DNA of 64,000 nucleotides from Candidatus Latescibacterota bacterium (GCA_016927495.1 JAFGMP010000040.1:3585-67584), one strand, 5' to 3'; positions 16,243 through 22,892 are shown, counted from the first letter of the stretch. Made by a program: numbers and translations. Notes: generated by a model not told the origin, from the letters alone.

Positions 16243-18030
16243 TTGCAGGAACTTGATTTGGAATATGTAAATCGGACATCTTTTGCCTATGCACATATTG
16301 CGGGCAGGTTAAATTTCCCCGGGCATTCCCTGACGCTCATCGTAAAAGGAACTTTCGAGCTTCATCATGGAGGCATTGTAACACCATCGAAAGAGCAAAT
16401 TTTCCCAACCGGCGATGAGTTTTATCCTGAGGATGACGGTGAAATGACAGGAAGCTGCCGTTACGAGTACGACTTTGCATATTTTAAACCACGGACAGAC
16501 CTTCTTCTCGCAGGACACTGCCACGCTCCCGGCAGTAACCCCGTACCAGGTTGTCCTGCAACATTCAAGGTAGGTTCACATTCCAAAACACTCTATGTGT
16601 TTGGAGACCGTACATGGAAAGGACCGCCCGGCATGAGGGTTATTTCCGACCCGAAACCGTTTTCCCAAATGGAACTGAAATATGAAAACAGTTACGGTGG
16701 TTCCGGATATCCGAAGAATCCTGTCGGAAAAGGATTTCAAAAACAGAATACCGAAACGGAAACAGGCGTTCTATTTCTTCCCAACATCGAGGATCCGGAT
16801 AACATGGTCGATTCACCCGGCAGTCAACCGGAACCTGCCGGTTTTGGTCCTCTGGGAAGAATGTGGCAACAGCGTCATTCGAAAATGGGTACCTACACCG
16901 GTCGCTGGATTAAAGAACGTTGGCCGTGGTTTCCCCTCGATTTTGATTGGGGACATTTTAATGCCGCACCACCTGATATGCAGGTCGTTGGCTATCTTCG
17001 CGGTGATGAGCAACTCTATTTTGAAAATCTTCACCCCGAACATGCGCACTATGAATCGAAACTTCCCGGATTAAGAATCAGATGCTTTTTGAATAAATTG
17101 ATTCCCGCTGATACCAGTCAGACTAACTTTGTCGAGGTCTCAATGAAACTCGATACTCTCTGGGTGGATATGGATGCGGATAAGCTTGTGCTGGTCTGGC
17201 GAGGAAGTGCTGAGGTTTTATCGGACGAATACGAAGAAGTGCAGCATATTTTCATTATGTCCGAACCTCTCGGTCAGCAACCTGCCGCTCTTGCGCACTG
17301 CTCTGAACTGTTCCTTGCCACACTGGCAGAAGAAGAAGCTGAAGAGGCCATAGAACCTGAAGAACCCGAACCGGTAATACCCGAAGAAGAGACACCGGAA
17401 ATTCCTGAAATTATGGTACCCGGCGCAGCGGCGGCGGGCGTATCAATACCGGGACTTGCAGCGGCTGAAATCATGGCGCCAGACAAAGAAAAACCGGAAG
17501 AAATACTCGTAGTTCCTGAAGAAGTAATACTACCCGCTGAACCTGAAGCATTCGACCCGGAGAAATTAAAAGTTCAGGCAAAAAAGCTGCTTGCTCAGGC
17601 TGGTCTCGATTTTGACAGCTTTTCACCTGAAGCCCGTGAAAAAGCCGATAAGGAAATGGACAATATTATTAGTAAAATGACTGAAACCGATCCGATTAAA
17701 ATTCTGGAGCAGCAGCGAAACGAATTGGAAATCCGAATGAACGAAGCATTTGCCAAATCCGGCATTGATACGGCAAACCTCCCGCCTGTGAGTGAAAAAG
17801 CTCATCAGGAACAAGTTCGAATGCTGCGGGAATTAGGTATTGAAAATACCGACAGTGTTTTTCAGGATCCCGAAATGTCCAGGATATGGAATATTTTATT
17901 TGCCGTGTTACCGGGTGTCGGAATTAGTCCTGAGGATATTTCCCCTCTCATACAGGAAGTTAAAAGACAACAGGATCGTATTAATAATAATATATCAGGT
18001 TTCAGACAAACGGATAATGCGGATACATAA
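16243..18030 (+). CDS. DUF2169-family protein (T6SS effector-loading adaptor family) with an acidic/Pro-rich C-terminal extension
   Basis: YVNRTSFAYAHIAGR...DLLLAGHCHAPG...LYVFGDRTWKGPP...FSQMELKYENSYGGSGYPKNPVGKGF matches the DUF2169 core. The C-terminal half carries a PEEPEPVIPEEETPEIPE low-complexity stretch and a helical tail. The start is a TTG at 16243 or 16258 and is uncertain. Confidence 0.7.
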   Translation: MQELDLEYVNRTSFAYAHIAGRLNFPGHSLTLIVKGTFELHHGGIVTPSKEQIFPTGDEFYPEDDGEMTGSCRYEYDFAYFKPRTDLLLAGHCHAPGSNPVPGCPATFKVGSHSKTLYVFGDRTWKGPPGMRVISDPKPFSQMELKYENSYGGSGYPKNPVGKGFQKQNTETETGVLFLPNIEDPDNMVDSPGSQPEPAGFGPLGRMWQQRHSKMGTYTGRWIKERWPWFPLDFDWGHFNAAPPDMQVVGYLRGDEQLYFENLHPEHAHYESKLPGLRIRCFLNKLIPADTSQTNFVEVSMKLDTLWVDMDADKLVLVWRGSAEVLSDEYEEVQHIFIMSEPLGQQPAALAHCSELFLATLAEEEAEEAIEPEEPEPVIPEEETPEIPEIMVPGAAAAGVSIPGLAAAEIMAPDKEKPEEILVVPEEVILPAEPEAFDPEKLKVQAKKLLAQAGLDFDSFSPEAREKADKEMDNIISKMTETDPIKILEQQRNELEIRMNEAFAKSGIDTANLPPVSEKAHQEQVRMLRELGIENTDSVFQDPEMSRIWNILFAVLPGVGISPEDISPLIQEVKRQQDRINNNISGFRQTDNADT

Positions 18031-18062
18031 ACACCGACAGAAAATGAGTAAAAGTTACGGCG

Positions 18063-19085
18063 ATGCATGACGACATTTTTTTTGATCAAAATAACGAAAT
18101 TAGCGATGAACTTCCCCCTGCCCTGACCCGGAGTCAGGTTGAAGATAAAATAGCACGGGGTGAACCATTAGCGGGTGAAAATCTTGCCGGGCTGTATCTT
18201 TCAGGTCTTGACATGAAGGAGATTGACTGCACCGGCGCTATTCTTGCCTGTGCCGATCTCAGCAATACGGATTTGTCCGGGGCAATTCTGACTCAGACCA
18301 ATATGACAAAAGCTAATGTATCGGGAGCTAATTTGACCGGCGCCAATCTGGTAGAAGCTGACCTGTCTGAAATAAATCTGGAAAAGGCCTGCTTACGGGA
18401 TGCCGATCTGACGGGTGCTGTTTTAAACAATTCTGTGCTTACCGACGCTTTGCTGAATGATGCTATTTTTGAAAAAACACAAATGATGAGCGCAAATCTT
18501 GAACGGGTTGAAGCTGTCGATACGAACTTTATCGAAGCTGACCTGAGCGGTTCCAACCTGGCACAAAGCAATCTCTCCGGCGCTGATTTTTCAAAAAGCC
18601 GGTTAGAAGAAACTGATTTCCGCGATTCTAATCTTACCGATACATCGATCGAGGGCGCTGTATGCAAAAAAGGTAATTTCACCGGGGCAAATCTGACAAA
18701 ACTGCGCGCTTCCGAAAGCAGTGATTTTACACAAGCCTGTTTCAGTAAAGCTTCAGGATTCGAATCTATATGGCATAACGCCATTCTGACAGACGCTGAT
18801 TTTTCCTACTCGAACATGGAGGGCGCCGATTTTACGAAAGCATCGTTCGAAAGGGCCATTCTTTATGCCGCAGATATGAAATTTGCACGATTCAGAAAAG
18901 CAAATTTGAAGAAGGCAAAACTCGTCAAGATGAACCTGTTTCAGGGAAGTCTCGAAAAGGCCGATCTTACCGATGCAAATTTGAGTGGATCGAATATGTA
19001 TGGCGTCGAATTTCTTGAAGCGGTACTTGAACGAACGATACTTGATAAAACCAATCTCAAAATGACTAAACTCTATAAAGGCTGA
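18063..19085 (+). CDS. Pentapeptide-repeat protein
   Basis: The whole length is A(D/N)LTGANL-type pentapeptide repeats (ANLTGANLVEADLSEINLEKACLRDADLTGAVL...). Confidence 0.85.
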   Translation: MHDDIFFDQNNEISDELPPALTRSQVEDKIARGEPLAGENLAGLYLSGLDMKEIDCTGAILACADLSNTDLSGAILTQTNMTKANVSGANLTGANLVEADLSEINLEKACLRDADLTGAVLNNSVLTDALLNDAIFEKTQMMSANLERVEAVDTNFIEADLSGSNLAQSNLSGADFSKSRLEETDFRDSNLTDTSIEGAVCKKGNFTGANLTKLRASESSDFTQACFSKASGFESIWHNAILTDADFSYSNMEGADFTKASFERAILYAADMKFARFRKANLKKAKLVKMNLFQGSLEKADLTDANLSGSNMYGVEFLEAVLERTILDKTNLKMTKLYKG

Positions 19086-19086
19086 A

Positions 19087-21525: not shown

Positions 21526-21563
21526 CAACTAATTCTGTAGATTCTATATAAAGGAGGCATTCC

Positions 21564-22472
21564 ATGATAGATACTCTCGAAAAAGCGTCTGTAATACCGG
21601 GAATAAAATATTTCGGTCCAGCCCGTATCATAAGTGATCAGGAGGAACACGGATATTATCGTATACTGATAAATCGGAATGACGAAGATCACGAATCTTT
21701 TAATACGCTTGCATATGCGGCATTACCCAATACCAGCAAACTGAACCGTGGCGATACCGTGCTTGTTGCCGGTGAAAAGATGCATAATTTTTATATTATA
21801 GGAATACTTCATTCTCAGTGTTCACAACAAAATATTGCCACCTCTCTTGAAACGCAAGATGGTGCTAAAGCTCTGATCAGCGGTCAGCCGGATGAAGAAA
21901 AATTACAATTTTTTTCACAGGACGGTGAATTGATTTTTGAATATAACTCCCGAACAAGAAAAAGCCACATAACTGTTCCATCGGGTGATCTGGATGTTCG
22001 TACTGCCAAAGGAGACATCAATTTTACATCGACACAGGGCATACTGTTTTCTGCAGAAAATCCCATAGAAATGCAAAGTTCCCGGGGTATAAAAATGACT
22101 GTACCGGATAAAAACACCGAGACGGTTTCGTTTGTACAAATACAATCACAACATATCGATTTGGAAAGCTCAAAATTTGGCGTTTCCGCCCAAAAAGGTA
22201 TGTTACAGATAGAAGAAACAGAATACGAAGGATTAGTTTTGGACGTTGCCATGTATTCTGTCAAGTGTGTCATGAAACGATTCGAATCTGTCTCCGACAC
22301 CGTAATTGAAAACATAAAAAACGTTTACAGAAAAGTGAAGGGGCTCACCCAGTTACAAACGGGAAGAATGCGCACCATTGTTGAATCGACCTATCAGCTT
22401 AAAAGCAACAAAACGATTTTGAAAGCTGAAGACGATTTTAAGATTAAGGGTGAAAAAATATATCTTGGATAA
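21564..22472 (+). CDS. Hypothetical protein, DUF3540-like by position in the conserved VgrG-DUF2169-PRP-DUF3540-DUF4150 neighbourhood
   Basis: RBS AAGGAGG, 302 aa, no signal peptide. The family call rests on the recalled conserved gene order only, not on a recognised motif. Confidence 0.4.
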   Translation: MIDTLEKASVIPGIKYFGPARIISDQEEHGYYRILINRNDEDHESFNTLAYAALPNTSKLNRGDTVLVAGEKMHNFYIIGILHSQCSQQNIATSLETQDGAKALISGQPDEEKLQFFSQDGELIFEYNSRTRKSHITVPSGDLDVRTAKGDINFTSTQGILFSAENPIEMQSSRGIKMTVPDKNTETVSFVQIQSQHIDLESSKFGVSAQKGMLQIEETEYEGLVLDVAMYSVKCVMKRFESVSDTVIENIKNVYRKVKGLTQLQTGRMRTIVESTYQLKSNKTILKAEDDFKIKGEKIYLG

Positions 22473-22490
22473 TAAAGGAGAAAATTATAA

Positions 22491-22892
22491 ATGTTTGCAT
22501 CAACAAAAGAAGCCGGAGAGCTTATGGGCGTGCCGGATGTGTGTAAAGTACCTTCACCGGTAGGGCCTATACCGACTCCGTTTCCGAATATGGGTATGTG
22601 TATGATGGCTACGAATTTTTCCATGAAAGTCAAAATTTGTATGAAAGAAGCGTTGACAACAAAATCTGAAATACCCCAGTCAAGTGGTGATGAAGCAGGT
22701 GTGGCAGGCGGCGTGGTTTCAGGGATGATTAAAGGGCCTGTAAAATTTATAAACGGTAGTACTAAAGTGAAATTTGAAGGGAATCCGGCTGTCTTTTTGG
22801 GATCTCCGACAGCTCATAACGGGTCAAACGCCAATGTACCTGCAGGATCCCAGATTTCACCCAGTCAGGTGAAAGTTATGATTATGTCCTGA
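22491..22892 (+). CDS. DUF4150 PAAR-like protein, stand-alone with no fused toxin domain
   Basis: The motifs GVPDVCKVPSP...PIPTPFPNMG...SSGDEAGVAGGVVSG...KVKFEGNPAV...TAHN match the DUF4150 hallmarks (PDVC, PxPYPN, SSGDEAG, terminal HN). RBS AAAGGAG. Confidence 0.75.
   Translation: MFASTKEAGELMGVPDVCKVPSPVGPIPTPFPNMGMCMMATNFSMKVKICMKEALTTKSEIPQSSGDEAGVAGGVVSGMIKGPVKFINGSTKVKFEGNPAVFLGSPTAHNGSNANVPAGSQISPSQVKVMIMS

Follow-up and report, generated by a model that had tools for sequence, protein, structure and literature searches.

A probable Class III Tvp module with a split TvpAB beside a hairpin-bearing VgrG in a Candidatus Latescibacterota type VI secretion operon

Results and Discussion

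The genes downstream of vgrG correspond to a Class III Tvp module

The stretch of DNA analyzed here, called the window, comprises 64,000 nucleotides (nt) from Candidatus Latescibacterota bacterium (GCA_016927495.1 JAFGMP010000040.1:3585-67584) and comes from a metagenome-assembled genome (MAG) that NCBI labels Candidatus Latescibacteria bacterium. We found that positions 16243-22892, which follow the vgrG gene of a type VI secretion system (T6SS) operon, most probably (at roughly 0.8) represent a Class III Tvp accessory system (DUF2169 synteny type C) of the adjoining VgrG, with a role in spike assembly and capping assigned by homology to Serratia marcescens. This kind of module was already characterized in 2025-2026, and the present copy is an enlarged, split variant rather than a new system. 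Three features set it apart from the published form, namely the division of TvpAB over two genes, the long type of both TvpB and TvpC, and a hydrophobic hairpin in the VgrG. The genes concerned are the following (aa, amino acids).

13219-16155 (+): vgrG (TssI), 978 aa as the maximal open reading frame (ORF); Phage_GPD, E 1.3e-68; TIGR03361, E 2.4e-90
15406-15618 (+): hydrophobic helical hairpin in the VgrG extension, aa ~730-754 and 776-800 (Kyte-Doolittle)
16243-18030 (+): TvpA, putative N-terminal half of a split TvpAB, 595 aa; DUF2169 (PF09937), E 4.9e-94, aa 29-320
18063-19085 (+): pentapeptide-repeat protein (PRP) 1, putative C-terminal half of the split TvpAB, 340 aa; Pentapeptide, E 1.4e-59, 7 stretches
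19087-21525 (+): PRP2 = TvpB, 812 aa; Pentapeptide, E 6.4e-127, 20 stretches
21564-22472 (+): TvpC (DUF3540), 302 aa; PF12059, E 1.4e-23, 84.3 bits against a cut-off of 27.9
22491-22892 (+): PAAR-like PIPY (DUF4150) cone, 133 aa; Tox-PAAR-like (PF13665), E 1.9e-34, aa 12-114

An earlier note, made from the sequence of the window alone, had read the segment as a DUF2169 protein, two PRPs, a DUF3540-like protein and a stand-alone DUF4150 protein. All five ORFs are present on the plus strand, and Pfam bears out every one of these domain calls together with their coordinates and sizes. This includes the DUF3540 assignment of ORF 21564-22472, on which the note had staked its reading and which holds well above the cut-off of the hidden Markov model (HMM), and the PAAR-like protein, to which nothing is fused. 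The intergenic gaps within the module measure 1-87 nt, the one between vgrG and tvpA being 87 nt. The public gene calls are shorter for the DUF2169 protein, which NCBI begins 5 codons later (590 aa), and for VgrG (974 aa).

DUF2169 proteins have been described as chaperones of “PIPY” (DUF4150) cones by Sachar et al. (JBC 2025, PMC11883445), who define synteny type C as DUF2169-PRP fusion, PRP, DUF3540 and DUF4150. Monlezun, Earl and Coulthurst (EMBO J 2026, PMC13373197) introduced the names TvpAB, TvpB, TvpC and Paar1 and the term “Class III Tvp”. In S. marcescens, each of these four proteins is needed for Hcp secretion via the VgrG1 spike; they pre-assemble on a trimer of TvpC, an OB-fold plus beta-prism protein without gp27, whose place is later taken by VgrG1 (PMC13373197). 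The statement of the earlier note that the role of the PRPs is undefined has thus been overtaken, as published work assigns them a chaperone role in spike assembly (PMC13373197, PMC11883445). Work of 2025-2026 has largely settled this question, and the module in itself is therefore no discovery.

Compared with the definition of Class III, the window has the DUF2169 protein beside vgrG, a small effector-free DUF4150/PIPY protein with the P(I/V)P(Y/F) motif (here PTPF), an independent PRP protein (TvpB, 19087-21525), a DUF3540 TvpC (PF12059, predicted OB-fold, Foldseek matches to spikes) and an unusually long VgrG of 978 aa. A PRP fused to the C-terminus of TvpA is absent; the equivalent PRP is the separate ORF 18063-19085. 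The fusion is usual but not obligatory in type C, since Sachar et al. call this type “predominantly” multidomain (PMC11883445).

In S. marcescens Db10, VgrG1, TvpAB (SMDB11_2247), TvpB (2248), TvpC (2249) and Paar1 have a like set of domains, arranged 3' of vgrG as in the window. Both systems have a long VgrG without recognizable toxin domain, both TvpC proteins combine an OB-fold with a beta-prism and lack gp27, and the DUF2169 domain occupies comparable positions (aa ~1-323 in S. marcescens TvpAB, aa 29-320 in TvpA of the window). The differences lie in TvpAB, which is encoded by one gene in Db10 and by two in the window, and in the spike: VgrG1 has 786 aa of which only the last 26 are hydrophobic, whereas the VgrG of the window has 978 aa and an internal hairpin. 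In addition, the window has no Vai1-like gene between vgrG and tvpA, unlike Db10, and its host belongs to the Latescibacterota instead of the Pseudomonadota.

An equivalent gene set, tagA/B-5, tagB-5, tagC-5 (DUF3540) and tagD-5, is located 3' of vgrG-5 in T6SS-5 of Burkholderia (PMC6335564, PMC13584744). In B. pseudomallei and B. thailandensis, the gene order is identical to that of the window from tssB to clpV and onward over vgrG to the last of the four tag genes, and PAAR5/TagD-5 (130 aa) resembles the 133-aa PAAR protein in size and in having no effector domain. TagA/B-5 is fused in Burkholderia but split in the window. The PRPs of the B. glumae homologue (group_5) are TagAB with 878 aa and TagB with 356 aa (PMC8747328), the latter compared with 812 aa for TvpB of the window. 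T6SS-5 of Burkholderia fuses host cells.

Systems of Class I (Tap2/Atu3641-Tde2 of Agrobacterium tumefaciens) and Class II (PA0096-PA0098-Tse7 of Pseudomonas aeruginosa; VP1398 of Vibrio parahaemolyticus; PDB 8VTH) likewise place a DUF2169 chaperone and a DUF4150/PIPY protein beside vgrG. Unlike the window, they are devoid of PRPs and of DUF3540 and carry the PIPY domain fused to a toxin; Class II additionally has DUF6484 and the thiolase-like TvpD. In tblastn searches of plasmids, the DUF2169 domain retrieved only matches of the Class I/II kind (Rhizobium, Ralstonia and similar genera), and TvpC gave no match in the PLSDB plasmids. The Latescibacterota are not among the phyla given for Tvp systems in the 2026 paper (PMC13373197).

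TvpA and PRP1 are colinear with the two halves of fused TvpAB proteins

TvpA consists of the DUF2169 domain (aa 29-320; aa 59-275 match the DUF2169 structure PDB 8VTH with E 1e-25), an acidic, proline-rich linker at aa ~361-450 and a C-terminal region at aa 451-595. The composition of aa 361-450 (28% Asp+Glu, 16% Pro, 16% Ala) agrees with the Glu/Pro-rich linker that the earlier note had pointed out. Among the best 120 relatives, the closest (54-77% identity, 559-616 aa) are DUF2169 proteins without PRP, and most of the others are DUF2169-PRP fusions of 836-1019 aa that cover ~97% of the query. In BLASTP comparisons with nine fused homologues, TvpA aligned to aa 1-~550 (45-55% identity) and PRP1 aligned end-to-end with the last ~320 aa, with 48-55% identity in eight of them and 42% in the ninth (P0118). 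PRP2, in contrast, reached only 26-30% identity with the PRP regions of the fusions, compared with ~28% for generic PRP-PRP pairs.

Since the two genes are colinear with both halves of fused homologues, the sequence comparison identifies 16243-18030 and 18063-19085 as one TvpAB divided over two genes, with 935 aa in total. The linker and the C-terminal region of TvpA are accordingly the normal interdomain part of TvpAB, which in the S. marcescens model forms alpha-helices that pack on the TvpC prism (PMC13373197). The length and the linker of the “unusually large” 595-aa DUF2169 protein therefore stand, but the protein represents the N-terminal part of a TvpAB that is split, not an enlarged DUF2169 protein.

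Size, fold and conservation of TvpB, TvpC and the PAAR-like protein

Relatives were collected by a genome scan with a TvpC alignment, which yielded 59 loci in Nitrospirota, Ignavibacteriota, Planctomycetota, Latescibacterota, Desulfobacterota, Bdellovibrionota, Acidobacteriota, Myxococcota and Gammaproteobacteria. The order VgrG-TvpAB-TvpB-TvpC-PAAR is unbroken in 35 of the 59, so that the recurrence of the gene order beside vgrG, mentioned in the earlier note, extends over about nine phyla. Two Class III Tvp sets lie a few kb apart in L011, L041 and L047. The second set of L011 resembles the proteobacterial prototype in its TvpB (353 aa) and TvpC (216 aa), despite a VgrG of 919 aa. In four loci from Myxococcota and other Pseudomonadota MAGs (L055, L056, L061, L062), the order is permuted to TvpC-PAAR-TvpAB-TvpB or TvpAB-TvpB-TvpC-PAAR-VgrG, and the Tvp module thus moves as a unit relative to vgrG.

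TvpB of the window is composed almost entirely of pentapeptide repeats, interrupted by a non-repeat insert at ~aa 116-195; by a crude count, ~600-760 aa are in repeat register. Proteins at the like position after TvpAB have 580-828 aa in the related loci, with the exception of one system. The 812-aa PRP is hence unusually large, as had been noted, next to the 356-aa TagB of Burkholderia, but it is typical of the 35 environmental loci with intact order.

The same holds for TvpC. With 302 aa it is large compared to the 199-position Pfam profile of DUF3540 and to the 216-aa TvpC in the second set of L011, and typical of the environmental loci, whose homologues have 194-308 aa, many of them 296-302 aa. 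The match to the profile comprises aa 193-302 (positions 89-199) and, weakly, aa 63-90 (positions 35-62). Conservation is found in the OB-fold and in the C-terminal 60 residues; the length varies in three blocks (aa 90-109, 165-195 and 203-223), all of which follow the OB-fold. In an AlphaFold2 (AF2) model of TvpC with a mean predicted local distance difference test (pLDDT) score of 74, the strands of the OB-fold span aa 16-83, and a beta region is predicted with confidence up to ~aa 240. Foldseek matched this model in the PDB to the spike of the Algoriphagus contractile injection system (7aef_q, 6.4e-5) and to R2 pyocin (4s37, 8.4e-5), followed by PVC, VgrS, phi92 gp138 and T4 gp5. A search of solved structures with TvpC gave no significant match. 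As Pfam detected no Phage_GPD (gp27) domain, TvpC is, as modeled, a gp27-less OB-fold plus beta-prism protein and a putative surrogate of the VgrG tip. A C-terminal “KIKG....LG” is common to TvpC and VgrG in the window; since it varies across the loci, we did not count it as mimicry.

The motif of the PAAR-like protein is PTPFPN, compared with P-x-P-Y-P-N in 41 homologues; Thr at position 2 also occurs in L011.

The VgrG extension contains a conserved hydrophobic hairpin

VgrG of the window combines a gp27/gp5 core with a C-terminal extension of ~400 aa; solved VgrG structures align to aa 20-571 only. The two hydrophobic helices of the extension reach Kyte-Doolittle maxima of 2.73 and 2.28 (19-aa window). 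They are in register in L002, L003, L005 and L006 and are flanked by a conserved TSIINL...LSFG...NPDKT before and a PVSH-D-acidic segment after the hairpin. An HMM built from aa 690-835 matched 16 VgrG ORFs from several phyla, 12 of them with complete modules, and all full-length ones among them have at least 812 aa. The VgrGs of ~735-770 aa in related loci gave no match to this HMM.

VgrG-5 of Burkholderia (1012 aa, predicted transmembrane (TM) segment at aa 651-697) is comparable in architecture only. In this architectural sense, the window has the VgrG-5 type, that is, a VgrG of ~1000 aa with an internal predicted TM segment within a tssB...clpV-vgrG-tag cluster. VgrGs with an internal TM hairpin, which have so far been treated as peculiar to fusogenic Burkholderia, appear in many uncultured anaerobes, and if they prove homologous to VgrG-5, the origin of T6SS-5 would be reframed.

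The VgrG extension is itself the likely payload and is probably membrane-active, so that a separate cargo may not be required. For VgrG1 of S. marcescens, depolarization of target membranes has been described. The conclusion of the earlier note that the cargo must be non-covalent, which was drawn from the lack of a toxin domain in the PAAR-like protein, does not follow, because Class III systems as a rule have small PAARs and the 400-aa extension with its hairpin is a likely payload.

Chaperone length follows spike length

We compared protein lengths in 33 loci with complete genes; the ORF starts are approximate. The Spearman correlations were as follows.

VgrG and TvpB: 0.79 (n = 33)
VgrG and TvpAB: 0.82 (n = 33)
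VgrG and TvpC: -0.35, no scaling (n = 33)

The first two persisted when loci with >55% TvpC identity were merged (n = 25; 0.78 for TvpB and 0.86 for TvpAB) and when only VgrGs >800 aa were considered (n = 16 groups; 0.76 and 0.70, respectively). The loci form two size classes. In the short one, VgrG has ~735-770 aa, and TvpAB and TvpB have ~735 and ~604 aa, respectively; in the long one, to which the window belongs, VgrG has 812-1037 aa, and TvpAB and TvpB have 814-1002 and 636-828 aa. Both chaperones are also larger where VgrG bears the hairpin, with medians of 802 aa compared to 608 aa for TvpB (Mann-Whitney p 7.6e-6) and of 928 aa compared to 737 aa for TvpAB (p 5.5e-5).

A pentapeptide beta-helix takes up ~20 residues per 4.8 Å coil. 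As a rough guide, the 600-760 repeat residues of PRP2 would therefore form a rod of ~145-185 Å, which would be of the same order as the prism lengths predicted for Class III VgrGs. According to Appendix Table S5, the prism of S. marcescens VgrG1 has a predicted length of 186 Å and that of Burkholderia VgrG5 one of 165 Å.

Possible mechanism and the reason for large PRPs

By homology to S. marcescens, the small PIPY/DUF4150 cone would be covered on its hydrophobic face by the DUF2169 domain of TvpA, and the region behind this domain, together with the beta-helices of PRP1 and PRP2, would wrap the tip of the spike. This cap would first be built on a TvpC trimer that imitates the VgrG tip. VgrG would then displace TvpC, upon which Hcp and sheath could polymerize, and the chaperones would be left in the cell at firing. 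We further infer that the long beta-helices may cover the extended, hairpin-bearing spike while it resides in the cytoplasm; long PRPs would be needed because the six hydrophobic helices of a VgrG trimer have to be kept soluble there.

From this, a broader picture can be drawn in which the PRP beta-helices are length-matched covers for the TM-hairpin extension of the spike, the extension is the effector, T6SS-5 of Burkholderia is a specialized offshoot of an old and widespread environmental design, and orf262, the gene that follows the module, links the system to control of firing by Ser/Thr phosphorylation. In the window, control would come from chemosensory-driven partner switching, and the design would also be present in MAGs of Latescibacterota, Desulfobacterota, Acidobacteriota and Gammaproteobacteria. 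We regard this picture as speculative and rather unlikely. The scaling of chaperone size with spike length and with the VgrG hairpin yields a testable structural rule that could explain the use of PRPs.

Several points weigh against the assignment and the mechanism derived from it. The module comes from the MAG of an uncultured organism. The tip of TvpC (aa 243-302), which is its most conserved part, has a pLDDT <50 in the AF2 monomer, and BLASTP detected no significant similarity between TvpC and the VgrG C-terminus. The covariation of lengths could in part reflect phylogenetic inertia, as the short class consists mostly of related Desulfobacterota, and the second system of L011 is an outlier, with a TvpB of 353 aa beside a VgrG of 919 aa. 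Moreover, the idea of length matching goes beyond the published model, in which TvpB is a “seat belt” at the spike tip and not a longitudinal cover.

Alternatively, the large TvpAB and TvpB might fill a cavity of the baseplate that effector domains occupy in other systems and thereby satisfy an assembly checkpoint, without any shielding of the hairpin. Such a function has been explicitly proposed for Class III systems with small PAARs by Monlezun et al. (PMC13373197), and it would suit the window, where the PAAR is small and carries no effector domain and where no cargo effector/immunity pair is evident from vgrG to the regulatory genes. Cavity filling alone, however, predicts no rise of chaperone size with VgrG length or with the hairpin, both of which were observed above. 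We consider it possible but doubtful; cavity filling and hairpin shielding are compatible with each other.

The PRPs are poor candidates for secreted DNA mimics

The earlier note had suggested that the PRPs could themselves be secreted, as mimics of DNA or inhibitors of gyrase. According to this idea, they would be T6SS substrates that act in target cells in the manner of Qnr and MfpA or of the effectors PipB2 and its relatives. The fold is indeed known from Qnr, MfpA and the type III secretion effectors PipB and PipB2, with which the PRPs of the window share the right-handed quadrilateral beta-helix and an acidic composition. PRP1 and PRP2 are acidic as DNA mimics are (pI 4.6-4.7, net charges -19 and -43), and the NCBIfam models of Qnr, MfpA and PipB give partial matches to both. 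All scores nevertheless remain under the cut-offs, with 76.7 and 218.1 against 240 for Qnr, where the larger of the two scores is summed over 7 repeat stretches, 62.9 and 123.5 against 360 for MfpA, 99.7 and 176.3 against 354 for PipB2, and 94.3 and 166.7 against 274 for PipB. Among the features of the PRPs, acidity alone would agree with DNA mimicry. Their size and genomic context are different, too: Qnr and MfpA are monomers of ~180-220 aa, of which PRP2 has about four times the length, and PRP1 (340 aa) corresponds to one half of a chaperone fusion, here detached.

Secretion of the PRPs is also contradicted by the systems studied so far. In S. marcescens, neither TvpAB nor TvpB ever appeared in the secretomes (PMC13373197), TagAB-5 was judged a non-effector (PMC6335564), and VgrG5 and Hcp5 were reported as the sole T6SS-5-dependent secreted proteins of B. 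thailandensis (10.1101/2023.02.09.527577). The homologues are instead required for Hcp secretion and sheath assembly (PMC13373197; PMC6335564; PMC13584744; 10.1101/2023.02.09.527577). Finally, a PRP length that follows the length of VgrG is expected of a structural partner of the spike and not of a DNA mimic. Taken together, a role of the PRPs as substrates is very improbable.

The split of TvpAB recurs in related loci

The division of TvpAB is not confined to the window, in which tvpA and the PRP1 gene are separated by 32 nt. It recurs in L002, L003/L004 and L010, where the counterparts of PRP1 have 332-342 aa.

L002: ORFs for 597 and 342 aa, the former 77% identical to TvpA; 14-nt overlap
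L003/L004: ORFs for 577 and 332 aa; 2-nt gap (L003)
L010 (Latescibacterota MAG): ORFs for 587 and 333 aa; overlapping ORFs

Because the junction differs from locus to locus, the split is not a sequencing error. More generally, the view that the separation is an artefact, be it a frameshift from sequencing or assembly or a pseudogenized TvpAB, may point to the origin of the window from a MAG and to the single fused proteins of 836-1019 aa among most homologues, but it is hardly credible given two intact ORFs with a start codon each, a like split in four related assemblies that are independent of one another and differ in the junction, 54-77% identity of TvpA in L002 and L003, and nearest DUF2169 relatives (559-616 aa) that all lack a PRP domain.

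The halves of TvpAB can work as separate polypeptides, and the split systems therefore offer a natural experiment to separate the function of DUF2169 from that of the PRP.

Operon context, orf262 and downstream regulatory genes

The module belongs to a single, tightly packed and complete-looking T6SS operon at 85-23732 (+). A scan of 12900-25000 for promoters and terminators returned counts no different from those of shuffled controls. Around the module, the genes are arranged as follows.

5' of vgrG (+), in this order: tssM (truncated by the window start), tssA, tssB, tssC, hcp, tssE, tssF, tssG, clpV
22944-23732 (+): orf262, 262 aa
23749-34322: RsbW-like kinase, STAS antagonist, Cache_3-Cache_2 methyl-accepting chemotaxis protein, CheW, CheR-TPR, CheW, CheA-receiver, CheB, receiver-PP2C (SpoIIE)

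orf262 starts 51 nt after the PAAR gene and has no match in Pfam or NCBIfam. Its family counts 184 representatives in 1.84 billion proteins, nearly all of 255-265 aa. The AF2 model (pLDDT 96.5) predicts a flavodoxin/TIR/receiver-like N-terminal domain at aa 7-140 and an all-beta C-terminal domain. Homologues are found close to the PAAR gene, at no more than ~200 nt from its end, in L005, L010, L013, L014, L017 and L019; in L022, L040, L041, L047 and L048 the distance is at most 3.5 kb. As in the window, the gene follows PAAR in several loci of the long class. orf262 is a conserved T6SS-associated gene and a candidate extra component. In 11 of 20 loci the homologues have FHA proteins as neighbors. 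A 520-aa VipA-VipB-like protein and a 255-aa protein of unknown function are found beside them in 7 loci each, a PP2C phosphatase in 3 loci and a Ser/Thr kinase in L066-L068; one homologue, P0216, is a fusion FHA-SLT-orf262. In view of the FHA, PP2C and kinase neighbors, orf262 looks like part of a T6SS phospho-regulation neighborhood rather than a sixth Tvp protein.

The VipA-VipB-like protein of ~520 aa is encoded in L005 at 18703-20271 (-) and has a weak VipA (TssB) match and a clear VipB (TssC) match. Homologues are found near orf262 homologues and FHA genes in L013, L014, L026, L049, L065 and L069. The gene is additional to the normal tssB and tssC of the cluster.

The gene of the RsbW-like kinase begins 16 nt after orf262. 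The segment 23749-34322 is a chemosensory array that feeds a partner-switching module, and it is possibly co-transcribed with the T6SS. As a conserved neighbor of Tvp modules the RsbW/STAS/Che cluster was rejected, since homologous neighbors were absent from 64 related loci.

Other genes of the window

Further downstream, eight paralogous ORFs for PQQ_2/BamB-like beta-propellers start at 36032, 37481, 39565, 44340, 49893, 56614, 57969 and 59330. Within this region (36032-60667) they are interspersed with 4Fe-4S proteins and a GT4 glycosyltransferase; a NuoE/NuoF-like fusion (46038-48398), a GltD-like oxidoreductase (48368-49996) and an ABC/FtsX pair (52426-56411) also lie among them. The sole minus-strand gene in the first 60 kb, at 34309-35535 (-), encodes a Spondin_N protein with CarboxypepD_reg and bacterial Ig domains and has a local GC content of 34%, compared to ~42% around it.

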